Assembly: GCA_031425615.1 (NCBI GenBank)
Contig: JANPJR010000030.1
Location: forward strand, 274,492 to 330,389
Direction: 5' to 3'
DNA from: Cytophagales bacterium
GTDB taxonomy: Bacteria > Bacteroidota > Bacteroidia > Cytophagales > Microscillaceae
DNA length: 55,898 bases
This document shows positions 2,358 to 36,263 of the stretch, piece by piece; position 1 is the first letter of the stretch; each line of letters begins with the position of its first letter. The translations under genes and the position numbers were made by a program. The notes beneath the pieces are model-generated. The model was not told where the DNA came from. It saw nothing but the letters and a program-made list of their open reading frames with translations, and ran no database searches.

Positions 2358-2411
2358 ATTATTGTATTATTTTAAATAAAATAGTTGTTTTTTAATACAA
2401 AACATTCGTTT

Positions 2412-3083: not shown

Positions 3084-3140
3084 ATCATTACATTTTTGAT
3101 GATTTTGGTTGAATTTTTAGGTTAAATTTTGGAGAAATAT

Positions 3141-4205: not shown

Positions 4206-4268
4206 AAATGGTTTATTTTGATGCTAATTAAATTGTAATTTGTAGTAATTAGATTATAATTTGTGAGA

Positions 4269-6920
4269 TTAGGATTTTTTTATGATGTCTATTTTCCCTG
4301 TACTACCATTCATTTCTACGGTCATGCCTGTTTCCAATGTTTTCATTAGCCCTGTAATACCTACGATGCAAGGTTTCCCCATTTCCCTTGCCACTATCGC
4401 AGAATGACTAAGCAAACTGCCACGCTCCACCAAAATTCCGCTTGCTTGGGGAAACAATACCACCCACGAGGGGTCGGTGCTGTGTGTTACGAGTATGTTA
4501 TTGTTGAGTGCATTGCTATCATTTGGATTTTGTAGTACCTGTACTTGTTGTTTTACTACGCCTACACAACAACCTACGCCCTGTAAATCGCCTGTATGCT
4601 GAATATTTTTTTCTTGGCTGTGAAAATCATTTTGTTTTTGGTCATACACTATACCATACGTAGCAAATCGCTCTGAGGGTTGCCTGTCATCTGCATAAAA
4701 TTGAAATTCTTTTTTTCGTACATTTACCAATTCGTAAAGATTTTGAGTAACAGACGTACCGTTGATGTAAGCAAATATTTCTTCTTTGGTCAAATAAAAA
4801 ATATCTTTTTGGTCTGTAAGTAAATTTTGCTCAAAAAACTTTTTGCCAATATGCACAAATATCTCTCTTACTACGCCATACGCTCTTGTACGTTCGTATC
4901 TCAAATTTTCTCTTTGGCTTATCAAATCTCTTGCCTTGTCTAAAGTTTTGAAGAACTGTCTTTTTTTCCAAAAATTTACAAAAAAGTTTCTTCCAAGCAC
5001 ATTTTTTACTGTTTGTTCTGCGGTTTCTCTTATATTATTTTCAGTATTTTGGTTATAATGTTGGGTTGAAATGCCTTGTATCACATAATTTTTAAGAATC
5101 TTAATAAACAATGTAGGGTTTTGGTTGTATGACACACTTTCAAGTTTGAGTTCACCCACACATCTCTCCCCAAACATATATAAATAGTCGTCTATTTTTT
5201 GTTTTAGCTGAAAAAAATTATTTTTTTGGGAAAAATCATCTTGTTTATGGTTGGTTTCTTCTTGTAAAGTTGTCCAAATTGTATGTTCATTATTATCCAA
5301 AAACATTTTTTTGAGGGTTTCATGTTGTTGGATAAATGCTGACAAATGAATGGTTTGATGTATAGGTTGCGTAGAGATAATATTTTGACTTCCACAGAGC
5401 AAATCGTTGTGAATATTAGGATTTTTGTCGTGTAATTGTAGTTTTTCACACATTTTTTGCAACCTTCCAAAATAAATCATGGCAAAAAAATCATTCAATA
5501 GGGGGGCTTTCCATTCTTGTAGCAGGGTTTTTTCAAAATTAAGGTACAAATCTATTAGTTGGACGATATTTTTTTGTGTGTAGTCTATGTTTTTGTATTC
5601 TGCAATGGTATCATCCACAAGTTTTGTAAAGGTTTTTCTAATTTTGGGGAGGTTTTTTAATTTAAAAATCATGCCTACACCCATTTTTATAACCCTCCAC
5701 CAAGCGTATATTTTGGACATTTTGTAATCATCAGGCACATCAAAACGTTCTTTTACGCCCATCATTTTTTCCATGTAGCGTGCATTTATATTATAGCTGG
5801 GCAACATTGCAAGCATTTGATACCACGATTTCAAATTGTAGTAAATTCTTCCATTGAGCAACCCCAATGTATTGGCAAATACATGTTCATTTTGTGCAAT
5901 TACCTTTTTTTCCACACCAAGAAAACCTGCAAACAGTGAATAAGCACGCTGGTATGCTTTGCTCACAAACGAGAAAGTAAGAGGTGTAGTTACATTTGGA
6001 TAAGACTCAATAATATTGCTGTTGTCCCAAAGAATATAATTATTATCCTGTATTTTGGGTTTGATGGTGGTAATATTGCGTGTTTGGAGGAGGTATAATG
6101 TATCATTTTTGATGCAAAATTCTATGTCTTGGGGCTTTTTAAAATGTTTTTCCAAACGTTTCAAAACTTCCACAATCTCCAAGATGTGTTTTTCCGAGAT
6201 AGAAGGTTTATTTTGCAAATCTGCTTCTACTTCAGTCTTGGCTGTGTGATGTTTTTGGTGCGTATCTAATGAAATTTTGTGCGTTTTGGTTGCTATTTTG
6301 CTAATAATGTCTTTTGAAGTTGGTTTTTTCAAAGCATTTTTTACAATAAATGTATCAACATCTACACTTCCATTTACCACACCTTCCCCTACGCCCCAAG
6401 TACTATTGATAATGATTTCATTACGCATATCATTTGGATTATCATGTAGGATATTTACGCCAAAAGCCACGCCTGACACATCTGCATCTATCATTTCCTG
6501 AATAATGATGGCAGGTGTTTGAATATCATGCAGGATTCCGTGTTGTTTTTTGTAGGCTTTTACGCGGTCATTTTGGGGAGAAGCAAATACTTTTTGAATT
6601 TTTTCATGTATATTATCCAAATCCACATACAAAAAGCTATCAAACATACCCGCAAAGGAATATTTTTCGCCATCTTCCTCAACAGACGAAGAACGGACTG
6701 CGAAATAGGTTACATTTGGGAGTTCTTCTTTGACAAAAGTAGCAATTTTGGACGAGAGTTTTTCATTTTTTTGCTGAAAAATCACAATAAATGAAGGTAT
6801 AAGTAGCTTTAATTTGTGCATGGCGATAAGATTTTCAGCTTTATTGCCAACTTTAACAGGATTTTCTTGGATTTTTTTAGTGAACTTCAAAATTTTAATT
6901 GGTTTGGTTTTGAGAAACAA
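4269..6920 (-). CDS. PEP-utilising enzyme family protein (PpsA N-terminal ATP-grasp/PEP-pyruvate binding domain plus C-terminal mobile His domain; rifampin-phosphotransferase-like architecture)
   Basis: 883 aa. N-term KVGNKAENLIAM..., central VAFGVNILHDNP, C-term GCCVGVVKQQVQVL...VERGSLLSHSAIVAREMGKPCIVG, which is the PEP-utilising mobile-domain signature. Confidence 0.7.
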   Translation of the reverse strand: MFLKTKPIKILKFTKKIQENPVKVGNKAENLIAMHKLKLLIPSFIVIFQQKNEKLSSKIATFVKEELPNVTYFAVRSSSVEEDGEKYSFAGMFDSFLYVDLDNIHEKIQKVFASPQNDRVKAYKKQHGILHDIQTPAIIIQEMIDADVSGVAFGVNILHDNPNDMRNEIIINSTWGVGEGVVNGSVDVDTFIVKNALKKPTSKDIISKIATKTHKISLDTHQKHHTAKTEVEADLQNKPSISEKHILEIVEVLKRLEKHFKKPQDIEFCIKNDTLYLLQTRNITTIKPKIQDNNYILWDNSNIIESYPNVTTPLTFSFVSKAYQRAYSLFAGFLGVEKKVIAQNEHVFANTLGLLNGRIYYNLKSWYQMLAMLPSYNINARYMEKMMGVKERFDVPDDYKMSKIYAWWRVIKMGVGMIFKLKNLPKIRKTFTKLVDDTIAEYKNIDYTQKNIVQLIDLYLNFEKTLLQEWKAPLLNDFFAMIYFGRLQKMCEKLQLHDKNPNIHNDLLCGSQNIISTQPIHQTIHLSAFIQQHETLKKMFLDNNEHTIWTTLQEETNHKQDDFSQKNNFFQLKQKIDDYLYMFGERCVGELKLESVSYNQNPTLFIKILKNYVIQGISTQHYNQNTENNIRETAEQTVKNVLGRNFFVNFWKKRQFFKTLDKARDLISQRENLRYERTRAYGVVREIFVHIGKKFFEQNLLTDQKDIFYLTKEEIFAYINGTSVTQNLYELVNVRKKEFQFYADDRQPSERFATYGIVYDQKQNDFHSQEKNIQHTGDLQGVGCCVGVVKQQVQVLQNPNDSNALNNNILVTHSTDPSWVVLFPQASGILVERGSLLSHSAIVAREMGKPCIVGITGLMKTLETGMTVEMNGSTGKIDIIKKS

Positions 6921-7096
6921 GAAATTTACAGAAATTTTTTCTTAAAAATAAAAAAAAAACATATTTTTGTATAAAAAATTTGGTACGCTGACAATCTTAG
7001 TGAATACATATTTTTTGAATAACTTTCATTTGATAAGCATACAAACTCCACTAAAATTGCCAAACAACTATAAATTTTACAAAAATAAATAAAATA

Positions 7097-7600
7097 ATGA
7101 CAAAAAATAATACTTGGTATATAGAAATCGCAGGCATAACTTGTGCCACAATAGGATTTTTTTTGAGAATCGGACAAATTGGTGGATTTAGCGTATTTTT
7201 GATGTCGTTTGGATTTGGTATGTTGCTGGTAAACTATCTCAGCAGAGCAAGTGCAGTGTATTTACCAAAATATGATTTCTTGGCACAAGATATCGCTAAA
7301 CCTTTGGTATCTATCACATACAGTATTGTGAGTTTGGGAATTTTAGGACTTATTTTAAAGTTTAATTTTTTAAAATTAGGACAAGATGTATTAGAAATAA
7401 GCACATATTTACACCTCATCTTAGTAATTTTGTTGCTGTTTGCTATGCGTATTGCGGATTCTGCGCTACAATTTGAAAGCACAAAATCGCTTTTGATACG
7501 GTCTTTGGTGATGCTGGCGGTGGTTTATATGTTTTATCTTACTTCGCAAGAACGCTTGCAAAAGGCATTTACAGGAAAGAAAATGGAAAGTAGAAAATAG
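7097..7600 (+). CDS. hypothetical small integral membrane protein
   Basis: 167 aa, 4-5 hydrophobic helices, no recognisable motifs. Confidence 0.35.
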   Translation: MTKNNTWYIEIAGITCATIGFFLRIGQIGGFSVFLMSFGFGMLLVNYLSRASAVYLPKYDFLAQDIAKPLVSITYSIVSLGILGLILKFNFLKLGQDVLEISTYLHLILVILLLFAMRIADSALQFESTKSLLIRSLVMLAVVYMFYLTSQERLQKAFTGKKMESRK

Positions 7601-11132: not shown

Positions 11133-11537
11133 TTAAGATATTTCCTCGCAAGGTATCATTTCAAATTTGAGGGTAGAAAAAGAATGAAAATCCTCACCCA
11201 AGTCTTTCATATCCTCGTCTTCTGTTTCATAAAACCATTGCACAATGATTTCTTGCTCAGGTGTTGCAGTATTTTCAATAAGTTTAATGATTTTGCCAAT
11301 CATACCTGATGTACTGGTATTGACATAAATCAATTTGAGTGCAAGGACTACTTTTTCGGGGTGTTGTTCCTTTAAAAACTGTTCAATATGTTCCAACAAA
11401 GGATTATAAAAATCTTCTGTATCTTCAGGGATTGACACGCCTTTTATTTCAAAAATGCCATTTTCAACCTTAAAAGTTACCTCTGGTGTGGTAGGTGTTT
11501 CTTTTATAAATAAATCTTCCATAAATAAAGGGTTCAA
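11133..11537 (-). CDS. DUF1987 (SiaC-like) protein, copy 1
   Basis: About 130 aa. ...TPEVTFKVENGIFEIKGVSIPEDTEDFYNPLLEHIEQF...LIYVNTSTSGMIGKIIKLIE...IVQWFYETEDEDM is the SiaC/DUF1987 pattern. The start may be the second Met, MEDLF. Confidence 0.75.
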   Translation of the reverse strand: MNPLFMEDLFIKETPTTPEVTFKVENGIFEIKGVSIPEDTEDFYNPLLEHIEQFLKEQHPEKVVLALKLIYVNTSTSGMIGKIIKLIENTATPEQEIIVQWFYETEDEDMKDLGEDFHSFSTLKFEMIPCEEIS

Positions 11538-11631: not shown

Positions 11632-13662
11632 TTATGTTAGTTTAAATCCAGCAACCAAAATATCGTCCATTTGTCTATTTGTTCCCATCCAATCTATAAG
11701 TGTTTTATTTAGGATTTTTCGTTGTTCAGTCATAGGTTCTTGATGATGCTCAAAAAGCAATTCTTCAAGTCTATTTTTTGAAAATTTACGCCCTCTTTGC
11801 CCACCAAATTGGTCTTGGAAACCGTCAGAATATACATAGATAGAAAGTGGATTTTCAGGGTTATAATTGAATACATGTGAAGTAAAAACCCTTTCCCTAT
11901 CTTTCTGAAAACCTCCCACAGGCAATTTACTTGATTCTATCACTTGCATTTGTCCATCTTGTATCAATAAAAGTGGTCTGCCTGCCCCTGCAAACTCCAA
12001 TCGTTTTTTGCGTGGGTCAATAATACACAATGCAACGTCCATGCCATCTTGATTTTGGGTTTCTTGTTGGTTAAGCGCAATGCCTATGCTATTGTGCAAT
12101 TCTTCCAAAATCCAGCTTGGGTCTGTAATACCTTGTAAGTTGATAATTTGGTTTAGATAAGAATCTCCCAACATGGACATAATAGCACCAGGCACACCAT
12201 GTCCTGTACAGTCTAACGCAGCAAAAATAACTTTGCCATTTTTTTCTGAAAACCAATAAAAATCACCTGAAACAATATCTCTTGGGCGAAATAATATAAA
12301 ATTTTCGGGGAAACCCGCAGAAATTTCCAAAGCTGTAGGGAGCATTGACTCCTGAATACGTTTGGCATACGTAATACTCGCGGTAATGTCTTTATTTTTG
12401 CGTTCTATTTCTTTAAAAGTAGCTTCCAGCGTTTCATTTTTCCGATTGATTGCTTCATTTTGGATTTCAATTTTACCTTTTTGGTCTTCCAATTCTTTAT
12501 TTTTTGCTTCAATTTCTATTTTTCTTGTTTCCAAAATTTCCTTTTGTGTAGTAAGTTCTTTAGAAGTTTTTTCTATTTCTTCTTTTTGACTTTGCAAAAT
12601 TTTATTTGTTCTTTTGCTTTGTATATTGCTTCTATACAAGAAAAATACTACCACAAGCACCAACAATACAACAGCAAAAAGGAGGTAAATCCACAGTGTT
12701 TGCCTGTGTGATTCCGCTTCAGCTAATTCTCTTTTTTTGCGTTCCAATTCTGCAAGTGCATTACTTTCTTCCAATCTACCTTGTGTAGCATCTTGCAAAT
12801 CTTTATAATACGTTTCTCTAATGCCCGCATATTGTGTATAAAATTCGTAGGCTTGTTTGTAGTTGGATTGTGTAACTGCTACTTGTGCAAGTCCTTGATA
12901 AGCACGTTGCAAATCTGCATTATCGCCACTGCGTTGTGCCATATACAGTAATTGGCGAAATGAACGAGAAGATTCAGGAATATTATCTTGTTGAAAAAAA
13001 GTTTCGCCTAATCTATGTAAATTATTCGCAATAAGTTTTCTATCCAACAATGAATCTGCCATTACAAGTGCTTTTTGATGATATTGAATGGCTTTATCAA
13101 ATTCTAATTTTTTGGAAAAAACAGTCCCAAGATTTGTCAAAGTAGTTGCAATGCCCTGTTTATCTTTCACATTTTGGTAAATTGAAAGCGCTTTTTCCAA
13201 ATAATTGAGGGCTTTGTCGTTCTCGTTCAATAAGGCATAACAACTGCCTAATCGGTTGTAACTCTCTGCTATTTTTGTATTATTTTTAGTATTTTCTTTG
13301 AGTGCTAAGGCTTTGAGGTAAAATTCTACTGCTTTCGTATAATCCCCTTGTATTTGATAAATATTACCTATTTTGTCTGCACTTGCAATAATACCTTGTA
13401 CATATTTTATTTTTTCGGAAATATGTAAGGCTTCTTCTGCGTATTTTCGGATTTTAGCTGGGCTTTCTTTTGTATTTTGGTATTCATCATACAAATTATT
13501 CAAAATTCGCACCCTTGTAGTGTCATTACGCGTCATTTTGAGCGTACTTTCAAGTTTTTCTATACGTGGATTAGGTTGTGCATAGCTTTTTGGGATAATA
13601 TTAAAGCATATTACCGCCATCAAAAAACCCAAAAAGCATCTTTTTTTATTCATAAGGGACAC
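11632..13662 (-). CDS. PP2C/SpoIIE-family Ser/Thr phosphatase with periplasmic TPR sensor, single TM helix and coiled-coil (SiaA-like)
   Basis: Signal peptide, about 280 aa of TPR repeats, TM LWIYLLFAVVLLVLVVVFFLY, heptad coiled-coil, then SpoIIE/PP2C core ...FRPRDIVSGDFYWFSEK...ALDCTGHGVPGAIMSML...YVYSDGFQDQFGG. Confidence 0.85.
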   Translation of the reverse strand: MSLMNKKRCFLGFLMAVICFNIIPKSYAQPNPRIEKLESTLKMTRNDTTRVRILNNLYDEYQNTKESPAKIRKYAEEALHISEKIKYVQGIIASADKIGNIYQIQGDYTKAVEFYLKALALKENTKNNTKIAESYNRLGSCYALLNENDKALNYLEKALSIYQNVKDKQGIATTLTNLGTVFSKKLEFDKAIQYHQKALVMADSLLDRKLIANNLHRLGETFFQQDNIPESSRSFRQLLYMAQRSGDNADLQRAYQGLAQVAVTQSNYKQAYEFYTQYAGIRETYYKDLQDATQGRLEESNALAELERKKRELAEAESHRQTLWIYLLFAVVLLVLVVVFFLYRSNIQSKRTNKILQSQKEEIEKTSKELTTQKEILETRKIEIEAKNKELEDQKGKIEIQNEAINRKNETLEATFKEIERKNKDITASITYAKRIQESMLPTALEISAGFPENFILFRPRDIVSGDFYWFSEKNGKVIFAALDCTGHGVPGAIMSMLGDSYLNQIINLQGITDPSWILEELHNSIGIALNQQETQNQDGMDVALCIIDPRKKRLEFAGAGRPLLLIQDGQMQVIESSKLPVGGFQKDRERVFTSHVFNYNPENPLSIYVYSDGFQDQFGGQRGRKFSKNRLEELLFEHHQEPMTEQRKILNKTLIDWMGTNRQMDDILVAGFKLT

Positions 13663-13785: not shown

Positions 13786-14181
13786 TTAGTTTTCAGGTTC
13801 AAAAGAAAACATATTGATTTTCAAGCCTGTATCTTTCATATAATCTTCTGCTTCTTCTGCGATGCTGTCATCATCTTCAGGGTAATACCAATTTACAATA
13901 ACTTGTCCGCTTTCGTCTTCGTATTTTTTCAATACACGCAAAATATTGAGGATACTACGTGAAGAACTTGTATTAAAATATGTGAGCCTAAAATTGAATG
14001 TAAGCCCTTTTTTAATTTCACTGATGTATTTTTCCAACCAACCAATGATTTGGTTATAAAATTCGTCTGTATCTTCCAAGTATGATTCGCCTGATATTTC
14101 ACACACACCATTACCTGCATTAAGCATAACTTCGGGAATGAAATACACATCACTTTTCCCTGAAATTTCTAAATTTTCCAT
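13786..14181 (-). CDS. DUF1987 (SiaC-like) protein, copy 2
   Basis: MENLEISGKSDVYFIPEVMLNAGNGVCEISGESYLEDTDEFYNQIIGWLEKY...LTFNFRLTYFNTSSSRSILNIL...VIVNWYYPEDDD. Confidence 0.8.
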   Translation of the reverse strand: MENLEISGKSDVYFIPEVMLNAGNGVCEISGESYLEDTDEFYNQIIGWLEKYISEIKKGLTFNFRLTYFNTSSSRSILNILRVLKKYEDESGQVIVNWYYPEDDDSIAEEAEDYMKDTGLKINMFSFEPEN

Positions 14182-14322: not shown

Positions 14323-14892
14323 TTAAGTTGTTTCTTCTTCTTCTGGAAATTTGGCTACTGTTACAAATATGGCATAAAAAGCCATATCTCCCACAAGTTC
14401 TTTTATTTTGATTTCAAGTTTGTTGTCTGCAGTAAGTGCTACCTGCACAAGACCAATACCCGCTCCTTTACTTTCTTCGTTTTGTGGGTCATTGCGTAAC
14501 TTACGTTTGTATTCACGCAGGGCTTCACGGTCTAAAGTGCTGATAGTTTCATATTTTTCCAATAATTTTTGAACAGCAGTTTTATACACAAGATTTCCTG
14601 TGATGAGTTTGTATTCTGTTTCATTTTGAATGATTACAAGCGTGCCTACTTTGTCCCTATTACCAAAATGATTAATTTCTTTGGAATAATACAATACGTT
14701 TTGGGCTAACTCCATAAAAATGGCAAACACTTTTTTGCCTACTTTTGAGTTTTCTTCTTGTAATTTTTGGCGAATATCCCTACTAAACTCCGCCAAAAGA
14801 ACATCTGTAAGCGGACCTTTATAAGACAAAATAATATTCTCTTGGCTTATTTGGCTGTGATATTCAAAAAAATTAAAACCCTTTAAATTCAT
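14323..14892 (-). CDS. SiaB-like GHKL/anti-sigma-factor-type Ser/Thr kinase-like protein
   Basis: 189 aa. N-box-like FMELAQNVLYYSKE and G2-box-like SKGAGIGLVQVAL. It is the first gene of the DUF1987/PP2C operon and is homologous to the N-terminal half of the 24770-25774 fusion. Confidence 0.6.
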   Translation of the reverse strand: MNLKGFNFFEYHSQISQENIILSYKGPLTDVLLAEFSRDIRQKLQEENSKVGKKVFAIFMELAQNVLYYSKEINHFGNRDKVGTLVIIQNETEYKLITGNLVYKTAVQKLLEKYETISTLDREALREYKRKLRNDPQNEESKGAGIGLVQVALTADNKLEIKIKELVGDMAFYAIFVTVAKFPEEEETT

Positions 14893-22885: not shown

Positions 22886-24538
22886 TTACAATTCTTCCGA
22901 AGGTTTTTCCAATTTACCTTCACCTTCTTTCAAAAATTTCTCAAAATCTTCTTCTGAGTTACCACTTTCTTTTTCCATTTCTTTACGTTTTTTACGTTTT
23001 TCTTCTGCTTCTTTTTCTGCTTTTTTGTTTGCCTCTTGTGTTTTTAGGTAGAGGTCATATAGGGCTGGAATAGCGTTGGTTTTGGCATCTTGGAAAGCAA
23101 GCGAAACTTGTGCTTTTATCAAATCTTTGTCTTTTTGTACACCATTTACCGTAAGGGCAAGACCTTTTAGGCTTTTTTCTATAGGCTCAAATGCCCCAGA
23201 TATTTCTTTTGTATTTTTGAGGAGTTGCACAAGGTCAAAATACAATACCATATTTTGGTTTTGGGTTATGCTTGTGATGAGGTTATTTTTGCCAAGTTCT
23301 CCTTTTTCTGCTTTTATTTTTTCCAAAAGTTGTTTGCCATTGATGACATGCAACATATCTTTTTCTATATAGACATAGCTTTCTTCGCTTCCTGTACCTC
23401 TGCCTTGATAGGTATTATCTGCTATTTTTTTGAAAGTTTCGCTTGTACGTTCATTACGCATCATATCATCAAATATTTTACGGTCTTTGATTTTGATGGT
23501 TGTACTAAAAGTTGGTATTTTTCCAGAGAAAATTTTTGAAAAATCTATATTTTCCAACGCAAAAGCTAAATCGCCTGTTACATTTTGTAATACACTAAAA
23601 AGTTCTGTACCTGTATCTTTTTTGAAATTGCGTGCTTCTTTTTCAAAATCTTTGTCTTTTTTGAGTTCTGCAATAATGCCTTCCATATTAAGTGCAGTGC
23701 TTAAAAACACTTTTGGATTTGCAACAGGGTTGTCGTTCAATACACTTTTATCAAGGTTTGTGCGGATGAGGCGGGCATATTTTTCTGATTTCCCTTTCAT
23801 AAAATAGGTAAAAATTTCCATGTTGATAGCACCACTTTCAAAATTGAGGGCAAAATTTGCCCCTATGATGTCGTCTTTTGCTTGATTTTTTACATTATTA
23901 GGCAAAAAATACATAGAAAGTGCGTCAGTTGCATTTTGTGTATTTATCCAAAATTGTATATCGTGTGTATTTTTTTGTGTTTCGGTAAATATAGGATTTT
24001 TTGCCCCAAAACTTTCGCTGACAGAGATTGCACTCCAAGCATTTACATTTTTGAGCAATTCATTTTCACTTTTATCGCCTATTGCTCCCCAAAGGATATT
24101 ATTTTTCCAAGCAAGCAAAAGCGGTTTTTTGTAAATATAGCTTAGGTTTTCTGCTTTTTTTGGTGCAATTTTAAATGCTTTTTGGGCACTTTCCGCCCAT
24201 TTTTTTTCGTCTTTGAGCAAAATGTGCATACCTAAAAAGGCATTTTCAGGCTTTTTGGCATCTGCATTTGTGTAGAAATACATGCGTTGTGTGTCGTCAA
24301 AACTACCATCAAGCAACAAAGGCAGTACTTCTGCAAAACTTTCTGATTCAGGAAAATTTTCTAAGAATTTTTTGTCCTTCAAAATTTTTATCATATCAGT
24401 TGATTTTCCCAAGATTTTTTTCAAATCAACTGTGATAACTGCATTGGCTGTGTTTGGGATTTGGGGCATTTTTCTGCCACCGCAAGACACTAATAAACCC
24501 AAGAAGAGGGCAAAAAGTGAGACTTTGGATAAATTCAT
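22886..24538 (-). CDS. hypothetical lipoprotein (DUF4836-like), C-terminal K/E-rich tail
   Basis: Likely start at the Met of MNLSKVSLFALFLGLLVSCGG (lipobox). The ORF-track start at 24586 runs into the tandem repeat array. About 550 aa, no enzymatic motifs. Confidence 0.55.
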   Translation of the reverse strand: MNLSKVSLFALFLGLLVSCGGRKMPQIPNTANAVITVDLKKILGKSTDMIKILKDKKFLENFPESESFAEVLPLLLDGSFDDTQRMYFYTNADAKKPENAFLGMHILLKDEKKWAESAQKAFKIAPKKAENLSYIYKKPLLLAWKNNILWGAIGDKSENELLKNVNAWSAISVSESFGAKNPIFTETQKNTHDIQFWINTQNATDALSMYFLPNNVKNQAKDDIIGANFALNFESGAINMEIFTYFMKGKSEKYARLIRTNLDKSVLNDNPVANPKVFLSTALNMEGIIAELKKDKDFEKEARNFKKDTGTELFSVLQNVTGDLAFALENIDFSKIFSGKIPTFSTTIKIKDRKIFDDMMRNERTSETFKKIADNTYQGRGTGSEESYVYIEKDMLHVINGKQLLEKIKAEKGELGKNNLITSITQNQNMVLYFDLVQLLKNTKEISGAFEPIEKSLKGLALTVNGVQKDKDLIKAQVSLAFQDAKTNAIPALYDLYLKTQEANKKAEKEAEEKRKKRKEMEKESGNSEEDFEKFLKEGEGKLEKPSEEL

Positions 24539-24680
24539 GTTCAAAAGTTTAAGGGTTTTAAAAGGTTTAATGTTCAAAAGATTCAAGGTTCAAAGGGTTC
24601 AAGGTTCAAAAGGTTTAAGGTTCAAAGGTTTTAAGGTTTAAGGGTTCAAGGTTCAAAAGGTTTAAGGGACAAAGTTTTTA
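24538..24680. repeat. largest GTTCAAAGG / GGTTTAAGG tandem array (about 14 units, roughly 9-10 bp period)
   Basis: ...ggttcaaagggttcaaggttcaaaaggtttaaggttcaaaggttttaaggtttaagggttcaaggttcaaaaggtttaagg..., seen directly in the sequence. Confidence 0.8.
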
Positions 24681-24769
24681 AAAAATTAAAAAAGGTTTAG
24701 ACGCATATTTTTTCTTTATTGTTTTAGACCTAATTTATTGAATCTTAAACTTTGAATTTCAAACTTTTT

Positions 24770-25774
24770 TTAATCTTCATCATCAACTTCATAGCCTATA
24801 AAATTCATATCAATTTTTGCACTTTCGCTAAGGTCTTGTGCTTCTTTGACAATATCAGTATCATCTTCGGGATAAAACCAATTTACTTCTACTTTTCCAC
24901 CACGTATTTCATACGCTTTTAGGCTACGAAGTGTGTCTAAAATGGCTTTGTAAGAGCTTGTATTAAAATAGGTAAGGCGAAAATTGAATGTAATTTTATT
25001 GTTGGATTCTTTGGTATATTTGTCAATCCAGCTAATAATTTTGGAGTAAAACTCGTTGGTGTATTCCAAATAGGATTCACCAGCCAGCTCACATACCCCT
25101 GTATCACCATTGAGCATTACATAAGGGGTATAAAATTCGCCTTTGTTACTTTTGATGTGTAATGTTTCCATTTGTTGCGTAGATTTTTTTTGGGTGGAAT
25201 TTTTTGAAACAGTAATTAAAAGGGTATAATATGTATATAAGTCATTTATAGGTTGCAAATCTACATGAATAGGATTTTCGGACACAAGGGTAGCTTTGAT
25301 AAGTCCTACGCCTGCTCCTTTGCTATCAGGGTTGTTTGGATTGTCATTTTCTACAATTTCCATGCGGTATTTTCTAAGCCCGTCAGTATCAAGCGTTTGG
25401 ATTTTTTTTGCTTGTTTATCAATAAATTCAGCTTGTTTGTGGGTGATGAGATTACCAGTAAAAAGGTGATAACTTGTTTCCCCTTCCGAAAGCACAATCG
25501 TACCAACAGGTGTAGCTTCGCCAAATTGGTTAATTTCTGCGGAATAATAAAAAATATTTTGGGCTAATTCCAAAAAAATATTGTGTAATTTTCTGCCTGC
25601 ACTTCTATTATTTACTTTATGAACGATTTCGTTGTCCATTTCTGCAATAATTTTGGTGGTGATAGAACCTCTGTAAGACAATATGACGTTTTCGTTGGGT
25701 AAATCCGCATAATATGCCAATGTACCAAGCTGTTCGAGCATATCTAATTTCATAATTGAGACAGTTTTTTCCAT
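24770..25774 (-). CDS. fusion protein: SiaB-like kinase-like domain (N) plus DUF1987/SiaC-like domain (C)
   Basis: Residues 1-190 (...NIFLELAQNIFYYSAE...SKGAGVGLIKATL) align with the 14323-14892 product. After the linker KNSTQKKSTQQMETL, residues about 205-334 (EFYTPYVMLNGDTGVCELAGESYLEYTNEFYSKIISWIDKY...ITFNFRLTYFNTSSYKAILDTL...VEVNWFYPEDDTD) align with the two DUF1987 proteins. Single continuous ORF. Confidence 0.75.
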   Translation of the reverse strand: MEKTVSIMKLDMLEQLGTLAYYADLPNENVILSYRGSITTKIIAEMDNEIVHKVNNRSAGRKLHNIFLELAQNIFYYSAEINQFGEATPVGTIVLSEGETSYHLFTGNLITHKQAEFIDKQAKKIQTLDTDGLRKYRMEIVENDNPNNPDSKGAGVGLIKATLVSENPIHVDLQPINDLYTYYTLLITVSKNSTQKKSTQQMETLHIKSNKGEFYTPYVMLNGDTGVCELAGESYLEYTNEFYSKIISWIDKYTKESNNKITFNFRLTYFNTSSYKAILDTLRSLKAYEIRGGKVEVNWFYPEDDTDIVKEAQDLSESAKIDMNFIGYEVDDED

Positions 25775-25838: not shown

Positions 25839-26093
25839 TTAAAAATTCAATTTCTCTACATTTCTTTTTTTTATCCATTCCAAATACACTTGTAATTCTT
25901 CTGCATTTTTGAGTGTTTGGAGGTCAGTATATTGTTTTGCGAGTGTTTTGTTGTCTATGTGGTGGTGTATGCTGCTATGACAAGGCTGGCACAGGGCTAC
26001 AGTTTTGGTGTGTTTTCCGCCTTTTGATTTTGGCAAAAGGTGGTGTTTAGAGGTGCGTTTTACCTCTCTTTCGCATAATTCGCAGATAGGCAT
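25839..26093 (-). CDS. small HNH endonuclease-motif protein
   Basis: 84 aa. CELC...HHLLPKSKGG...ALCQPCHSSIHH is an HNH/zinc-ribbon pattern. Confidence 0.65.
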   Translation of the reverse strand: MPICELCEREVKRTSKHHLLPKSKGGKHTKTVALCQPCHSSIHHHIDNKTLAKQYTDLQTLKNAEELQVYLEWIKKRNVEKLNF

Positions 26094-26338: not shown

Positions 26339-27766
26339 TTATTCATGGCTATCAAACACCACATTACCCAAACTTCTGCCATCATCACGTTTTTGGCGAA
26401 GAAGTATTGCTTCACGTTTTTCTTCTTGCAAATTAATAAAGTTGTAAATTAGCTTTCCTTTTTCAGTGGTTTCTATTTCTCCGTCCAAATCCTTAATAAG
26501 TTCTTGCATCATGTAATCAATCGTTTCTCTTGGTATGTTTGATTCACCACTTTCACGTGGATTGACAAGTTTTTCCAATTCTTCTGCGGTTACTTTGCCT
26601 TCTTCTTGCGAAAATATGGCTTTCATCAACCTTTTTCGGATATTTTCTAAATCTCTTTTGCGTGAAAATGCCCCAATTTGAAAATATCGCATGATAGGCA
26701 CAAGGAAAAATATCACTGAAAACACAAAAGGCACCCAACCCAACCCAACCGTAATGCCTGCTCCCATGTCTTGTTGCAAGCCCATAGATACAAAAGCAAG
26801 TGCAAAAGAAAGGTTAAACAAACCCATGAACACAATCCAAAAGTTACGCCAAAAAGTATTGCCTGTTAAGTTGTATTTTGGCACATATTCGTCCCAATAC
26901 CAAATTACTTTTTCTTTACCCTCTACACCTTTTGTACGTGTAAAATCTCTAAAATCGCCATACAATACTTTATTTTCGCTGATTTGGGCATCACCTTGAT
27001 ATTTGGCAATACTTTCCGAAAAAAAATTTTCTGCTTCTGCACTTCTCCAACCTGCCAAACCTATGATTTCACTTCGTGTAACAATGCCTTTATTATCTCT
27101 CAAATATTGTGCAAGTTCTCGGTGTTGGTCTTGTCGTGTGGTTTCAACTCTTTCAGGCCCAAAAACAAAATCATATACAGAGGCTACAAAGTCTTTCCCT
27201 CCTTTTTTATCCAATGCAGAAGTACGTGAATCATATTCTCGGTAACGATAACCGTCATTATCATACACATAGTGCGTATTGCTTGTGTGTGTATTCCAAA
27301 TAAAAATTCCCCTGAACAATTCACCTAAAATATTGAAAAAACCACCATCACTATCCGAAGAACTACTTGAATCGCTATCGCTGTTCCCTGAAAGAGAAGC
27401 AATAATTATCGCAATCAAAATTATTAGAAATATCACAAAATATACGACCAATGTAACCGAAATCCATATTTTAAAAAAAACCATAAAGGCTTTCCACAAT
27501 ACTTGTTTTGCCCCAAACCACCATTCTTCCCACGTTCTTTCACCTCTTTTGTGGAGAACTTCGCCAAAATCATAGATTAAATCACCATTTTCGGTAATTT
27601 TGAGGCGACAATCATACAACGACAGAAGCCTTGTCAATATATCTTTTGCGTCATTGACTGAAGTACCTGCTATGGATGCTGCGTCACCAATCGTAAGCAC
27701 TCTATCACGCCCTTGTATGCGTGTTTCTATTTTTTTTAGCCCTTCTAAAACTGCTACATTGCTCAT
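26339..27766 (-). CDS. hypothetical membrane protein with an internally duplicated soluble domain
   Basis: 475 aa. N-terminal ...LYDCRLKITENGDLIYDFG and C-terminal ...DLDGEIETTEKGKLIYNFI are clearly related repeats. Two hydrophobic blocks are separated by a Ser/Asp-rich linker. Confidence 0.45.
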   Translation of the reverse strand: MSNVAVLEGLKKIETRIQGRDRVLTIGDAASIAGTSVNDAKDILTRLLSLYDCRLKITENGDLIYDFGEVLHKRGERTWEEWWFGAKQVLWKAFMVFFKIWISVTLVVYFVIFLIILIAIIIASLSGNSDSDSSSSSDSDGGFFNILGELFRGIFIWNTHTSNTHYVYDNDGYRYREYDSRTSALDKKGGKDFVASVYDFVFGPERVETTRQDQHRELAQYLRDNKGIVTRSEIIGLAGWRSAEAENFFSESIAKYQGDAQISENKVLYGDFRDFTRTKGVEGKEKVIWYWDEYVPKYNLTGNTFWRNFWIVFMGLFNLSFALAFVSMGLQQDMGAGITVGLGWVPFVFSVIFFLVPIMRYFQIGAFSRKRDLENIRKRLMKAIFSQEEGKVTAEELEKLVNPRESGESNIPRETIDYMMQELIKDLDGEIETTEKGKLIYNFINLQEEKREAILLRQKRDDGRSLGNVVFDSHE

Positions 27767-30341: not shown

Positions 30342-32954
30342 ATGTCCAATCAAACCGCTACAAAAACCTTTAAAATACGTCCTATTCATACCAAAATTAT
30401 ATTTTGGGTGTTTTTTACTGCACTTTTGGCAATGATTGGGATTGCGATAAGCATATACAAATGGATATACAATCCTTTGGAACTCACTTTTTTGGGTTGG
30501 GTACTGATAAGTGGGGGTATTGTTTTTCTGCAATTTGGTTTATGGTTTTCGTTTTTACGTGTGGTTGTAGCACCTTTACAAAATCTTGCACAAACTGCAA
30601 AATCAATATCAGAAGGCGACATTTCTATAAATGTAGAAATTAATGCTTTTGATGAAATAGGAAGTATTGCCCATTCCACAAATTCTATTGCACAAAGCAT
30701 CAAACAAGCGAGAGAATTTACAAATAGCATAGGCGAAGGGAATTTTGAGGTTTCAATTTTACAAACTAACCAAAAAAATACAGAAAAAGATGGGCTGTTT
30801 ATTTCATTAATGAAAATGCGAAACCAGCTTAAAAAAGTAGCAGATGAAGATGGAAAACGTAATTGGATTGCCAAAGGTATGGCAGAATTTACCAAAATAT
30901 TACAGTCCAACGATATTAGTATTCAAGAATTGGGTAAAGCTGTAATTGTTGAACTTATCAATTATTTGAAAGCCTCACAAGGGGCAATATTCATGTTGAA
31001 TAATTTTCAAGAAGACAATCCATATTTAGAACTTGTGGCAACTTATGCATACAATAAATTGTCATTTGAAGAAAAAAAAATTATCCTAAAAGAAAATTTT
31101 GCTGATGGTCTTGTGGGACAGGCTTTTTTGGAAAATAATATCATCAACCTTTCTAATATTCCGCCCAATTACCCTTACATTTCTTCAGGTTTGGGTGAAA
31201 CACAACCAAAAAATATCCTTATTGTACCACTTCAACTCAATGGTAAAACGGAGGGCGTAGTAGAAATTGCATCTTTTAGTACGTTCCAACCACACGAAAT
31301 AGAATTTATTGAGCGTATTTCGCAAAATATTGCCTCTGCAATACTTACCATTAAAACAAATGACAACACCAAAAAATTATTATATGAATCTCAAACGCTT
31401 GCCACAAAACTACAAGCACAAGAAAATGAACTAAAAGAAAGTTTATTAGAATTGCAAAGTAGTCAAATGGAAATAGAAAAGAAAAACCAAGAAATAGAAG
31501 CCCAAAAACGCAAAACCGAAGAAGCACTTGAAGAACAAACCGAAAAAAGCGAAATGCTTGAAGCACAAGAAGAAGAAATGCGTCAAAATATGGACGAATT
31601 GCTTACCATACAAGAACAAATGCGTATTACGCAGCTTGAACTTGATGGTCAGCTCAATGCAATCAATTCAAGTGCCATTTGCAAAGTAGAATATTCATTG
31701 GAAGGCAAAATCATAAAAGCAAATGAAAGTTATTGCAAACTTGTAAAATGTGATGAAGATGAAGTAAAAAATCTCCCACATAGCACATTTGTTGATAATA
31801 GATTTGCAAAAACAGACGCATATAAAATGTTTTGGGAAAATCTTAAAAATGGTATTCCACAAACAGGTGATTATCAATATGTGGATTGGGAAGGTGAAGA
31901 GTTTTGGATAAATGCGGTGTATTCGCCTATGTTGGATAACAAAGGCAAACCTCAAAAAATTATTCAACTCGCTTTTGACATTACAGAAGCAAAAAATCTC
32001 CTCCAAGAAATTCAAATGCAAACTTCTGTACTCAAAATGCAAGAAACGGAACTAAAAGACCGTATGAAACAACTCACAAACGCACAAGCAGAAATCAATG
32101 CCAAAAATCAAGCAATTATTGAACTCAAGGAAGAAGAAACCCGCAATGCACAACAACGTACCAGAGAAACTGAAAGCAAAAACCAACTTATCACATCAAG
32201 CATCAATTACGCCCAAAGTATTCAAAAAGCCATATTACCCAATGAAGACAAAATAAAGCAATATGTACAAGATTTTTTCGTGATTTTTATGCCAAAAGAT
32301 ATTGTTTCAGGTGATTTTTATTGGTTTTTGCATGTAGAACAACTCAATATTTCGTTTTTTGCTACTGTTGATTGCACAGGACATGGTGTGCCAGGTGCTT
32401 TTATGTCTATTATTGGTAATACTATTCTTAATGAAATCGTCAATGGACAAAAAATATATGAACCACACAAAATCCTTGAACTCTTACATATTGGCATAAG
32501 AACACGCCTAAGACAAGGCGAAACCACCAACCAAGATGGTATGGATATCGTACTCTGTAAAATAGCCCCAACAGCAACAGAAGAGGTAATCGTAACTTTT
32601 GCAGGAGCAAAAAGACCAATTTTTGTGTACGAAAATACATTACACGAAATACAAGAACATAAAGGCGACCGCAAATCTATTGGTGGATTTCAAGGAGAAG
32701 ATTATAGAGCTTTTTCGCAACAAGAATTTACCCTCAAAAAAGGAAATATCTTGTACCTCACAAGTGATGGCATAATGGATAATCCTAACCAACAACGTAA
32801 AAAATTTGGTGTACAAAAATTTAAAGATATTGCCCTCCAAAATATCAATAAAACCCTAAAACAACAATGTATTCTGCTTATCAACGAAATCATTTCACAC
32901 CAAGACGGAGCAGACCAACGTGATGATATTACAGTTATGGGGATAAGGTTGTAA
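30342..32954 (+). CDS. membrane sensor PP2C/SpoIIE phosphatase: 2 TM, HAMP, GAF, PAS, coiled-coils, PP2C (second SiaA-like protein)
   Basis: 870 aa. The TM pair flanks a short loop. HAMP-like ...VVVAPLQNLAQTAKSISEGDISINVEI.... GAF ...SQGAIFMLNNFQ...GVVEIASFS. PAS ...AICKVEYSLEGKII...WINAVYSPMLDNKG. C-terminal PP2C KDIVSGDFYWFLHV...VDCTGHGVPGAFMSIIG...YLTSDGIMD. Confidence 0.85.
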   Translation: MSNQTATKTFKIRPIHTKIIFWVFFTALLAMIGIAISIYKWIYNPLELTFLGWVLISGGIVFLQFGLWFSFLRVVVAPLQNLAQTAKSISEGDISINVEINAFDEIGSIAHSTNSIAQSIKQAREFTNSIGEGNFEVSILQTNQKNTEKDGLFISLMKMRNQLKKVADEDGKRNWIAKGMAEFTKILQSNDISIQELGKAVIVELINYLKASQGAIFMLNNFQEDNPYLELVATYAYNKLSFEEKKIILKENFADGLVGQAFLENNIINLSNIPPNYPYISSGLGETQPKNILIVPLQLNGKTEGVVEIASFSTFQPHEIEFIERISQNIASAILTIKTNDNTKKLLYESQTLATKLQAQENELKESLLELQSSQMEIEKKNQEIEAQKRKTEEALEEQTEKSEMLEAQEEEMRQNMDELLTIQEQMRITQLELDGQLNAINSSAICKVEYSLEGKIIKANESYCKLVKCDEDEVKNLPHSTFVDNRFAKTDAYKMFWENLKNGIPQTGDYQYVDWEGEEFWINAVYSPMLDNKGKPQKIIQLAFDITEAKNLLQEIQMQTSVLKMQETELKDRMKQLTNAQAEINAKNQAIIELKEEETRNAQQRTRETESKNQLITSSINYAQSIQKAILPNEDKIKQYVQDFFVIFMPKDIVSGDFYWFLHVEQLNISFFATVDCTGHGVPGAFMSIIGNTILNEIVNGQKIYEPHKILELLHIGIRTRLRQGETTNQDGMDIVLCKIAPTATEEVIVTFAGAKRPIFVYENTLHEIQEHKGDRKSIGGFQGEDYRAFSQQEFTLKKGNILYLTSDGIMDNPNQQRKKFGVQKFKDIALQNINKTLKQQCILLINEIISHQDGADQRDDITVMGIRL

Positions 32955-33695: not shown

Positions 33696-36263
33696 ATGGC
33701 AGGCAAAAATCAAAATTCAGGTATTTCTAATGTAATAGGCAAACTCCAACCACAGGCATTGGATTTGGAGGAATCTGTATTGGGAGCGTTAATGATTGAA
33801 AAAGACGCACTCAATTTGGTGATTGATACCCTGCGTCCTGAAAGTTTTTATAAGCCTGCACACCAAGAAATTTATAGGGCAATTTTTGACCTTTTTGCAA
33901 GCTCTCAGCCTATTGACTTCAAAATGGTAGTGCAACAACTCCGCAAAAATGGCAAAATAGACCTCGTAGGCGGTGCCAATTATGTAATGCAACTCACAAG
34001 TGGCGTGCAATCGTCTGCCAATATAGAAGCGCATGCAAGGATTATCACAGAACAGGCAATCAAGAGAGAACTTATACAAATATCTTCCGAAATACACAAA
34101 GATTCGCTTGATGAAGGAAAAGATATTTTTGACCTTTTAGACCAAACAGAGCAAAAACTTTTTCAGGTTTCAGAGAGCAATATTCGAAAGCAATATTCCA
34201 CTATGGGCAACCTTGTATCTCAAGCCCTCAAAGAACTCGAAGACCGTCGCCAACTCAAAGACGGTCTTACAGGCGTTCCTACAGGTTTTAGTGATTTGGA
34301 TAGGATTACAGGCGGGTTTCAAAAATCGGATTTAATCATACTCGCAGCGAGGCCAGCCATGGGCAAGTGCCACGCACTTGGCACGATTATTGTTATGTGG
34401 GACGGAACGCTCAAAAAAGTAGAGGATATTGTGGTGGGAGATGTGCTAATGGGTGATGATTCTACCCCAAGAAAAGTACTTTCATTGGCTCGTGGGCGTG
34501 AAATGATGTACTGGGTTAGGCAAAATAAAGGGGTGGATTATCGGGTAAATGAAAGCCATATTTTATCCTTAAAAAGAAGCAGAACAGAATACAAACATAA
34601 AAATGGCGATATTTTAGACATTGAATTAAAAGAATTTTTACAAAAAAGTAAAAAATTTAAAAGCAATTATAAAGGATATAGGGTTGCAGTTGAGTTTGAG
34701 GAAAAAACCACCACCATAGAACCTTATTTTTTAGGGCTTTGGTTGGGTGCTGGAAACTCCAATTCTGCCCAAATTACAAACACTGATGAGGAGGTTAAAA
34801 ACTATCTTTATGAATATGGAGACAGACTAAAAATCCCTGTTTCTGTCAGTATTTTAAATAATAATCCTAAACACACAAGATATAAACTGCACAAAGATTA
34901 TGATAATGATTGGTCGTTTTTAGAATTTGAAATCAATAGGTTAAATTTAAGAAACAACAAACACATTCCTCACCATTATTTGGTGAACAATACCCAAAAA
35001 AGGTTAGAGTTATTGGCGGGTTTAGTAGATAGTGATGGGCATTATTTGAAAGGTAGCAATGGGTACGAGATTACCTTTAAAAACAAACATCTTGCCCAAC
35101 AGCTTAAATTTTTGGTAGATTCGCTTGGTTTTCGTGCCTCTTTAATTCCTAAAAAAGCAACCATCAAAAGCATAAATTACGAAACAGAGGTATATCGTGT
35201 GCGTTTTTTTGGTGATGTGGATAAAATCCCAGCAAGAATCCCTCGCAAAAAAGCCCTTCCTTGGCGTGATACACATCGTACTTGGCTACAAACGGGTTTT
35301 AAGATAGAAAAAGACATAATAGATGATTATTATGGTTTTGTGATAGATGGCAATCACAGATTTTTGTTGGAGGATATGACTGTGGTGCATAATACTGCGT
35401 TTTCGCTTTCATTGTTGCGAAATGCTGCAGTAGATTTTGGCAAACCTTGTGCCTTTTTTTCATTGGAAATGTCAGAAATACAGCTTGTAAATCGTCTTTT
35501 GTCAGGTGAGGCAGAGGTAGAAAGTGACAAAATAAGACGTGGCAGAATGGAAGAGTGGGAATGGCTAAAAATCCACGAAAAAACCCAAAAACTTAGAGAA
35601 TCACCCATTTTTATTGACGATACGCCTGCTATTTCTTTACTTGAATTGCGCGCAAAATGTAGGCGTTTGAAAGCACAACACGATATACAGCTGATAGTGG
35701 TAGATTATCTCCAACTTATGACCGCTTCCACAGGCAAAAATACAATGGGTAATCGCGAGCAAGAGATTTCTACGATTTCACGTGGATTAAAAATGATCGC
35801 AAAAGAACTTAATGTACCTGTAATTGCCTTAGCACAGCTCAGTAGGGCGGTTGAAACAAGGGGAGGCGAAAAAAAACCGCAACTTTCTGACCTTAGGGAA
35901 TCTGGCTCATTGGAACAAGATGCTGATATTGTGATTTTCCTATATCGTCCAGAATATTACGGTTTCGCAACTGATGCAGAAGGAAACGCAACCAAAGATG
36001 TAGGCGAAGTAATCATTGCAAAACACCGTAACGGTTCGCTGGACACGGTTAAATTAAAATTTATTGGACGATACACTAAATTTGAAAACTTAGAAGGGGC
36101 TAATTTTATGCCTCGTACCAACAATACACAAGCTACTACACAACCAATTTTTAATAGTAAAATCAATAATACTACACCAACCACACAACAAAACCCAAAT
36201 ACCCAAGACATGAATGGATTCCAAAATAATACACCAAGATTAGATGATGAACCACCTTTTTAA
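33696..36263 (+). CDS. dnaB: replicative DNA helicase DnaB, interrupted by an in-frame intein
   Basis: N-terminal DnaB domain (LDLEESVLGALMIE...). Walker A LAARPAMGK|C is interrupted. The extein resumes ...HN|TAFSLSLLRNAAV. Downstream are Walker B LIVVDYLQLM and RecA-like motifs (LAQLSRAVE, SGSLEQDADIV). Low-complexity C-terminal tail. Confidence 0.9.
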   Translation: MAGKNQNSGISNVIGKLQPQALDLEESVLGALMIEKDALNLVIDTLRPESFYKPAHQEIYRAIFDLFASSQPIDFKMVVQQLRKNGKIDLVGGANYVMQLTSGVQSSANIEAHARIITEQAIKRELIQISSEIHKDSLDEGKDIFDLLDQTEQKLFQVSESNIRKQYSTMGNLVSQALKELEDRRQLKDGLTGVPTGFSDLDRITGGFQKSDLIILAARPAMGKCHALGTIIVMWDGTLKKVEDIVVGDVLMGDDSTPRKVLSLARGREMMYWVRQNKGVDYRVNESHILSLKRSRTEYKHKNGDILDIELKEFLQKSKKFKSNYKGYRVAVEFEEKTTTIEPYFLGLWLGAGNSNSAQITNTDEEVKNYLYEYGDRLKIPVSVSILNNNPKHTRYKLHKDYDNDWSFLEFEINRLNLRNNKHIPHHYLVNNTQKRLELLAGLVDSDGHYLKGSNGYEITFKNKHLAQQLKFLVDSLGFRASLIPKKATIKSINYETEVYRVRFFGDVDKIPARIPRKKALPWRDTHRTWLQTGFKIEKDIIDDYYGFVIDGNHRFLLEDMTVVHNTAFSLSLLRNAAVDFGKPCAFFSLEMSEIQLVNRLLSGEAEVESDKIRRGRMEEWEWLKIHEKTQKLRESPIFIDDTPAISLLELRAKCRRLKAQHDIQLIVVDYLQLMTASTGKNTMGNREQEISTISRGLKMIAKELNVPVIALAQLSRAVETRGGEKKPQLSDLRESGSLEQDADIVIFLYRPEYYGFATDAEGNATKDVGEVIIAKHRNGSLDTVKLKFIGRYTKFENLEGANFMPRTNNTQATTQPIFNSKINNTTPTTQQNPNTQDMNGFQNNTPRLDDEPPF
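34368..35393 (+). mobile_element. DnaB intein (342 aa) carrying a LAGLIDADG-type homing-endonuclease domain
   Basis: Begins Cys (CHALGTIIVMWDG, block A) and ends VVHN followed by extein Thr. Internal YFLGLWLGAGNS (degenerate) and LLAGLVDSDGHY (canonical LAGLIDADG). Length divisible by 3; excision restores GKT of the P-loop. Confidence 0.8.

Follow-up and report, generated by a model that had tools for sequence, protein, structure and literature searches.

A SiaB-family kinase domain and a SiaC-family phospho-acceptor domain joined in one polypeptide in a Cytophagales bacterium

We analyzed a stretch of 55,898 nucleotides (nt) from a Cytophagales bacterium (assembly GCA_031425615.1, contig JANPJR010000030.1, positions 274,492 to 330,389), called the window in this paper, and focused on a gene on its reverse strand that encodes a SiaB-family GHKL kinase domain followed by a SiaC-family (DUF1987) phospho-acceptor domain. 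The original prediction, made from the letters of the sequence, was that a kinase-like half and a DUF1987 half are joined by a Ser/Thr/Lys/Gln-rich linker within one uninterrupted open reading frame (ORF). The locus was found to be as described: the ORF at 24770-25774 (reverse strand) encodes 334 amino acids without a break, and residues 191-201, KNSTQKKSTQQ, match the linker. The features of the gene are as follows.

24770..25774, reverse strand: SiaB-SiaC fusion ORF, stop codon included, 334 amino acids, uninterrupted (ORF list and two Pfam domains)
25199..25717, reverse strand: SiaB-family GHKL kinase domain, residues ~20-192 (NF038262, 6KKO_A, Foldseek)
25229-25612, reverse strand: Pfam DUF6272 (PF19788) core, residues 55-182 (E=4e-27)
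25556..25570, reverse strand: N-box of the ATP site, E69-L-A-Q-N73, aligned to IEMTQN of Pseudomonas aeruginosa SiaB
25301..25321, reverse strand: G-box or ATP-lid motif K152-G-A-G-V-G-L158, with G157 invariant, aligned to SGAGLGL of P. aeruginosa SiaB
25172..25204, reverse strand: interdomain linker KNSTQKKSTQQ, residues 191-201 (sequence; predicted local distance difference test score, pLDDT, below 50 for residues 194-200)
25184-25191, reverse strand: run of eight adenines (A8) inside the linker (sequence)
25169..25171, reverse strand: codon of an internal methionine, Met202, which aligns to Met1 in stand-alone SiaC proteins
24791..25171, reverse strand: SiaC-family (DUF1987) phospho-acceptor domain, residues 202-328 (PF09345, 6K4F/6KKO_C, Foldseek)
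24953..24964, reverse strand: phospho-acceptor motif N271-T272-S273-S274, T272 corresponding to T68 of P. aeruginosa SiaC (LLYLNT68SSIK)

Pfam reported two domains in the fusion protein, DUF6272 and SiaC (PF09345, residues 214-326, E=3e-36), and no other. The N-terminal half scored 94.8 bits against PF19788 (cutoff 26.6) and 122.6 bits against NF038262, the NCBIfam model for the "SiaB family protein kinase" (curated cutoff 85), and the C-terminal half scored 124 bits against PF09345 (gathering cutoff 24.5). Sequence matches to solved P. aeruginosa proteins were also obtained, to the SiaB chain 6KKO_A for the N-terminal half (E=5e-9) and to the SiaC structures 6K4F and 6KKO_C for the C-terminal half (E ~3e-12). 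An AlphaFold2 (AF2) model of the fusion was built from an alignment of 19 fused homologues, and both domains were modeled with confidence, the SiaB domain at a pLDDT of ~85-90. When the model was compared with known folds using Foldseek, the N-terminal half matched 6KKO_A with a template modeling (TM) score of 0.79 (E=1.4e-9), followed by the GHKL anti-sigma kinases SpoIIAB and RsbW and then by PDK and CheA-P4. The C-terminal half matched SiaC (6KKO_D, 6KKP, 7E6G) with TM scores of 0.91-0.93 and root mean square deviations of 1.6-1.9 Å. GHKL similarity of the N-terminal half, which had been predicted, was found by profile hidden Markov model, by sequence and by fold.

Both halves also proved to be paralogues of other proteins encoded in the window, as had been proposed. 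The N-terminal half shares 36% identity with the kinase-like protein encoded at 14323-14892 (E=3e-44). For the C-terminal half, identity is 52% with the DUF1987 protein encoded at 13786-14181 (E=4e-46) and 27% with that encoded at 11133-11537. For both halves, the E-values of the paralogue and domain matches are far beyond what chance would give. The P. aeruginosa equivalog models, however, were matched below their cutoffs, at 57.6 bits by the N-terminal half (NF038264, cutoff 225) and at 75.2 bits by the C-terminal half (NF038265, cutoff 150), indicating that both halves are members of these families and not orthologues of the Pseudomonas proteins.

The catalytic residues of SiaB referred to here are assigned through conservation of GHKL motifs, not through published mutagenesis. 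All of the GHKL ATP-binding motifs (the E-x-x-x-N N-box, G-N, and the G-x-G-x-G-L lid) are present in the kinase domain of the fusion. E69 and N73 of the N-box, N108, and G157 of the G-box are invariant in 25 of 25 SiaB-SiaC fusions; among the 185 domains compared, they are likewise kept in each of the 12 that come from SiaB-SiaB-SiaC proteins and in 147-148 of the 148 free SiaB domains. On the substrate side, T68 of P. aeruginosa SiaC, at the start of helix alpha-2, is known to be the residue on which SiaB acts as kinase and SiaA as phosphatase (PMC7647112, PMC7278518). The sequence F-N-T272-S-S of the fusion aligns to L-N-T68-S-S of that protein, and the acceptor column holds T or S in 31 of 31 fused and 183 of 184 stand-alone SiaC domains. 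The ratio of nonsynonymous to synonymous substitution rates (dN/dS) between the window gene and its orthologue in L002, a Cytophagales metagenome-assembled genome (MAG), was 0.065 overall at a dS of ~1 (0.069 in the kinase half and 0.055 in the SiaC half), showing purifying selection on both halves. The catalytic and acceptor residues are conserved alike in fused and free domains, so the same constraints act on fused and on separate proteins.

Because a one-base insertion or deletion in the A8 run could split the ORF, a frameshift artefact had to be excluded; with seven or nine adenines at 25184-25191, the sequence would be read as a SiaB ORF of 209-218 amino acids overlapping a SiaC ORF of 133 amino acids. 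A protein identical to the fusion is recorded in both NCBI and Logan. The same fusion is encoded in L002 (88% identity) and is also seen in P0002, a protein from a JGI metagenome (90% identity). Compared with that of the window, the L002 linker carries 12 extra nt and lacks 3 nt, changes that keep the frame, whereas its A8 run is unchanged. The identical database records, the orthologues read in frame from independent assemblies, the in-frame linker changes and the dN/dS of 0.065 led us to reject a frameshift artefact at the A8 run and to uphold the prediction of a single ORF. These data show that the fusion gene is real and selectively maintained.

The prediction had also called for a search for the same fusion in other genomes, and it was found, including in L002, L039, L059 and L063. 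The fused ORFs L039 and L059 are from Thermonemataceae MAG sequence, L063 is from the cultured isolate Thermonema rossianum DSM 10300, and a further fused homologue, P0003, is 45% identical to the window protein. Prevalence was taken from an exhaustive search with HMMER, which covered 1.84 billion representatives, with clusters defined at 50% identity and the best 150 matches inspected. Among these best 150 representatives, a list biased toward two-domain matches, there were at least 20 SiaB-SiaC clusters and at least 6 SiaB-SiaB-SiaC clusters. A word-indexed profile search had recovered only four fusions. The order of the domains was always SiaB then SiaC among the fused matches listed, and the interdomain linkers measured 2-19 residues between domain envelopes, with nine in the window protein and just 2-5 in many fusions.

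The three-domain SiaB-SiaB-SiaC proteins are ~500 amino acids long (P0015, P0020, P0046, P0048, P0049, P0151, and L088 at 5001-6518). In their SiaC-proximal kinase domain, the residue equivalent to G153 is T, R or I, and E69, N73, N108 and G157 are kept; this domain may have a modified ATP lid.

In species-representative genomes the usual arrangement is of separate, adjacent siaB and siaC genes. The gap between them had a median of 32 nt in 90 adjacent siaB-siaC pairs and was 12 nt or shorter in 19 of these. Beyond the 88-90% orthologues, the closest relatives of the window gene are unfused, namely P0007 (57%), a kinase without a SiaC domain, and, at 61%, the SiaC gene of L043. L043, a Microscillaceae MAG, carries a syntenic split orthologue at 5628-7408, in which an HNH gene is followed by siaB, a 499-nt non-coding spacer and siaC; its domains are orthologous to those of the fusion (57-61% identity to the P0007 and L043 proteins), and the HNH gene just upstream of siaB encodes 84 amino acids with 64% identity to the HNH protein upstream of the window fusion. 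The Thermonemataceae fusions are nearest to Raineya loci in which siaB and siaC lie 4-7 nt apart, and further fused clusters likewise have unfused nearest neighbours. Because different fused clades have unfused nearest neighbours, fusion, or fission, must have occurred several times. A single origin of all fusions was rejected on these grounds and because the L043 locus is split and syntenic. The L043 spacer bears GC-rich, hairpin-like repeats (ccctctccttcggagagggcagggtgagg; ccccctgcccccggaggggg) and may be an insertion resembling a miniature inverted-repeat transposable element or a repetitive extragenic palindromic sequence that parted siaB and siaC.

The genes of the window that bear on the fusion, and those that flank it, are listed here.

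14323..14892, reverse strand: stand-alone SiaB-family kinase paralogue, 189 amino acids, first gene of the canonical module (Pfam, NCBIfam)
13786..14181, reverse strand: stand-alone SiaC paralogue, 131 amino acids (Pfam, NCBIfam)
11632..13662, reverse strand: SiaA-like TPR-transmembrane (TM)-SpoIIE (PP2C) phosphatase of the canonical module (Pfam)
11133..11537, reverse strand: second stand-alone SiaC paralogue (siaC2), 134 amino acids (Pfam, NCBIfam)
30342..32954, forward strand: orphan HAMP-GAF-PAS-SpoIIE (PP2C) phosphatase, 4.6 kb from the fusion (Pfam)
25839-26093, reverse strand: HNH_5 protein gene, 84 amino acids, 64 nt upstream of the fusion and on the same strand (Pfam; arrangement conserved in L043)
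22886-24586, reverse strand: ORF of 566 amino acids with a lipoprotein-like signal sequence, downstream of the fusion (its counterpart behind the L002 fusion is 66% identical)
26339-27766, reverse strand: ORF of 475 amino acids with hydrophobic segments and a poly-Ser/Asp tract, flanking the fusion

Two PP2C proteins, as had been predicted for the window, are thus present, TPR-TM-SpoIIE at 11632-13662 and HAMP-GAF-PAS-SpoIIE at 30342-32954; their genes are 11 kb and 4.6 kb from the fusion, respectively. The unfused module at 14892-11133 (siaB, siaC, TPR-SpoIIE, siaC2) has paralogous domains in the same SiaB-then-SiaC order, with a siaB-siaC gap of 141 nt, compared with 499 nt in L043. The ORFs at 22886-24586 and 26339-27766 had no Pfam match above the gathering cutoff and no NCBIfam match.

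In other genomes the fused gene is often found near a phosphatase gene. A PP2C gene lies within ~3 kb in 5 of 11 other fused-gene contexts, and in three of these it belongs to the same gene run. In L059, the gap between the fusion and the PAS-SpoIIE gene upstream of it is 30 nt, and another SpoIIE gene converges on the fusion from downstream. The L082 operon (1408-5945) consists of a Y_Y_Y-SpoIIE PP2C gene, a free SiaC gene and the SiaB-SiaC fusion, with no stand-alone kinase gene, suggesting that the fused kinase may also serve the free SiaC; genes for a phage-type integrase and for a Prim-Pol/D5 primase follow just downstream. The order in the L084 operon is SpoIIE, SiaB, SiaC and fusion, and in L085 the fusion is followed downstream by TPR and SpoIIE genes on the same strand. 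L088 has its SiaB-SiaB-SiaC gene 3 kb from a PAS-SpoIIE gene. The remaining six contexts (L001, L002, L039, L063, L086, L087) are orphan, and no neighbour gene shared across the fused clades was found among the contexts compared. When four PP2C catalytic domains were compared, the orphan PP2C of the window and the PAS-SpoIIE protein of L059 were reciprocal best matches (42% identity, 181 bits). This weakly suggests that the HAMP-GAF-PAS-SpoIIE protein encoded at 30342-32954 is a candidate for the cognate phosphatase of the fusion.

The system closest to the fusion is SiaABCD of P. aeruginosa (6KKO, 6K4F, 7E6G), in which SiaB and SiaC are made as two proteins and regulate the diguanylate cyclase SiaD (PMC7278518, PMC7647112, PMC8457831). 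Both halves of the fusion are homologous to SiaB and SiaC by sequence and fold and share with them the ATP-site residues of GHKL kinases and an N-T-S-S acceptor motif (T68 = T272), and a PP2C (SpoIIE) protein is likewise encoded in the window and beside fused genes elsewhere. The two differ in that kinase and substrate form one polypeptide here, in that the host belongs to the Bacteroidota (Cytophagales) and not to the Pseudomonadota, and in that, unlike in the siaABCD operon, no siaA gene is adjacent and no SiaD-type GGDEF protein was present among the 37 window ORFs scanned. SpoIIAB-SpoIIAA and RsbW-RsbV are more distant. They share the kinase fold class (1TID, 1TIL, 6M37; TM ~0.58-0.68 by Foldseek) and the phosphorylation-controlled partner-switch logic proposed for the fusion, but each pair consists of two unfused proteins and controls a sigma factor, and sequence identity to the fusion is only ~10%.

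A kinase fused to its own substrate has a precedent in Rv1364c of Mycobacterium tuberculosis, a single PAS-PP2C-GHKL kinase-STAS chain in which Ser-600 of the STAS domain is reported to undergo autophosphorylation and autodephosphorylation (PMC9138534, PMC7693655). In both proteins a partner-switch GHKL kinase is covalently joined to the antagonist domain that is its known or, in the fusion, predicted phosphorylation target. However, Rv1364c combines an RsbW-type HATPase with STAS, whereas the fusion combines SiaB/DUF6272 with SiaC/DUF1987; and Rv1364c also holds sensor and phosphatase domains, whereas the fusion has kinase and substrate alone and would rely on a separate PP2C. The fusion is therefore an analogue, and not a member, of the Rv1364c-type fused RsbW-RsbV regulators, and the precedent makes its concept less novel.

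The suggestion that this architecture has not been characterised agrees with the literature search, in which DUF6272 was mentioned by none of the papers searched and the single paper mentioning DUF1987 describes no fusion. In databases, unfused relatives carry the name "SiaB family protein kinase", and the fused ones are unnamed or "hypothetical". A second suggestion, that the fusion acts as a Rosetta stone linking the two families, is correct as an inference but redundant: the interaction of SiaB and SiaC has already been shown by experiment and the complex crystallised (PMC7278518, PMC7647112, PDB 6KKO), so the fusion adds little on this point. The architecture is recurrent, uncommon and experimentally unstudied, and it is a modest variation on a known switch and not a new type of system.

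By homology to the SiaABC partner switch of P. aeruginosa, the fusion is likely to be a functional single-chain SiaB-SiaC module, that is, a tethered kinase-substrate unit of a PP2C partner switch. The gene probably arose when an adjacent siaB-siaC pair lost the stop codon and the short intergenic gap between its members. The product would comprise an active SiaB-family GHKL Ser/Thr kinase domain, a short flexible linker and an intact SiaC-family acceptor domain. We propose that T272 in the tethered SiaC domain is the target of the kinase domain, in-chain or across a SiaB-type homodimer, and that phosphorylated T272 would be the default, off state. A signal-activated SpoIIE/PP2C protein, with 30342-32954 and 11632-13662 as candidates, would dephosphorylate T272, and the unphosphorylated SiaC domain would bind a putative output protein or its own kinase domain. 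Tethering would provide a 1:1 ratio and a high local concentration of substrate, and it would shield the module from the paralogous SiaB and SiaC proteins whose genes lie 10 kb away.

Several observations weigh against this proposal. The AF2 model, built from only the 19-sequence alignment, showed no confident docking of the two domains (pTM, the predicted TM-score, 0.52; linker pLDDT <50), and since the interdomain placement is not confident, phosphorylation in cis and in trans within a dimer are both possible. The 2-5-residue linkers of many fusions may be too short for in-chain docking. In the window, the fusion is flanked by the HNH gene and the 566-amino-acid ORF and is adjoined by neither a PP2C gene nor an output gene, and none of the 37 window ORFs scanned with Pfam encoded a GGDEF protein, a sigma factor or any other candidate output. 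Finally, the margin by which the orphan PP2C was assigned is small, 42% vs 39% identity.

One alternative, possible though rather unlikely, is that the tethered SiaC domain serves mainly as a pseudo-substrate or auto-inhibitory plug that, while unphosphorylated, fills the kinase site; on this view the fusion would be a PP2C-controlled kinase for free SiaC paralogues and not an output-binding switch. Such an arrangement would resemble the long-lived SpoIIAB-ADP-SpoIIAA complex. Free SiaC genes often adjoin fused genes, as in the L082 and L084 operons, and two free SiaC paralogues are encoded in the window, which speaks for this alternative. Many fused genes, however, are orphans with no free SiaC gene nearby, and the SiaC half of the fusion has the family-wide conservation and the dN/dS (0.055) of a fully functional SiaC.

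Repeated independent fusions, many with linkers of 2-5 residues, could also signal a distinct device rather than a convenience. This device might be an obligate dimer with cross-chain phosphorylation of SiaC, or a single-turnover kinase gated by a pseudo-substrate; it might work as a timer that resets itself or as a memory element, and it might keep paralogous SiaB/SiaC circuits in Bacteroidota apart, circuits whose output would be unrelated to c-di-GMP. We regard this as a speculative and improbable reading.

There is also a small chance that translation starts a second time at Met202, giving a free SiaC protein beside or instead of the fusion. Met202 aligns exactly to Met1 of stand-alone SiaC proteins, is kept in the close fused homologues P0002, P0003 and P0006, and is preceded by an A-rich, unstructured stretch (upstream sequence AAAAATTCCACCCAAAAAAAATCTACGCAACAA); a stretch of this kind before the start codon is typical of Bacteroidota start regions. 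At this column, however, Met is found in only ~10 of 19 fused homologues, the rest having L, I, K or C, and the reading frame is held through the linker insertions and deletions, which would be needless if separate products alone mattered. An internal Met as a conserved second start was rejected on the first of these counts, and the second start is kept as a minor rival to the single-chain module.

The other three explanations are poorly supported. Phase variation, in which slippage at the A8 run toggles the population between fused and split forms, is very improbable: a single insertion or deletion does separate the two forms and the run is retained in the 88% orthologue, but three independent sequences are all A8 and fused, the run is missing from other fused clades, and runs of A8+/T8+ are ordinary in the window (78 in 56 kb, at a GC content of 32.9%). 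It is no more probable that the gene is an inactive relic, a tolerated accident with a dead kinase, a dead acceptor or both; it is an orphan with no adjacent phosphatase or output gene, but all catalytic and acceptor residues are retained, dN/dS is 0.065 at a dS of ~1, and the architecture recurs across many lineages. An error of one base in the A8 homopolymer that wrongly merged two overlapping genes, each of which would be read as its own ORF at A7 or A9, is hardly credible, since L002 and P0002 carry the same run in frame in independent assemblies, NCBI and Logan hold the identical protein, and distant fusions exist without the run, one of them from an isolate genome.

A kinase fused to its own substrate would offer a minimal system, in which cis and trans phosphorylation, release of the substrate and access of the phosphatase could be measured on one protein. 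The SiaB/SiaC family has so far been characterised in P. aeruginosa alone, and in Bacteroidota it is large and modular, with SiaB-SiaC, SiaB-SiaB-SiaC, SiaC-SiaC and SiaB-SiaB proteins. No diguanylate cyclase was found near the SiaB/SiaC copies of the window, which points to outputs not yet known.

Several other arrangements of these domains were encountered. Tandem SiaC-SiaC proteins are ~260 amino acids long (P0040, P0071, P0089, P0094, P0099, P0114, P0122, P0135, P0138, P0148), and tandem SiaB-SiaB proteins are ~380 amino acids long (P0005, P0098, P0102, P0103, P0150). Larger proteins with a C-terminal SiaB domain were also observed (P0018, P0021, P0023). In MAGs of gut and rumen Bacteroidales (L017, L025, L027, L029, L031, L032, L034, L035, L038, L047), five separate genes form the array siaB-siaC-siaB-siaC-siaC.

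Two further features of the window were recorded. A tandem array of ~17 AAGGTT[C/T] units (Tandem Repeats Finder periods 7, 16, 23 and 47) lies at 24539-24681, after the fusion's stop codon and ahead of the point where the 566-amino-acid ORF probably begins; the TTG start listed for that ORF is inside the array. The gene for the DnaB replicative helicase (33696-36263, forward strand) is split by an intein whose domains are Hint and a LAGLIDADG homing endonuclease.

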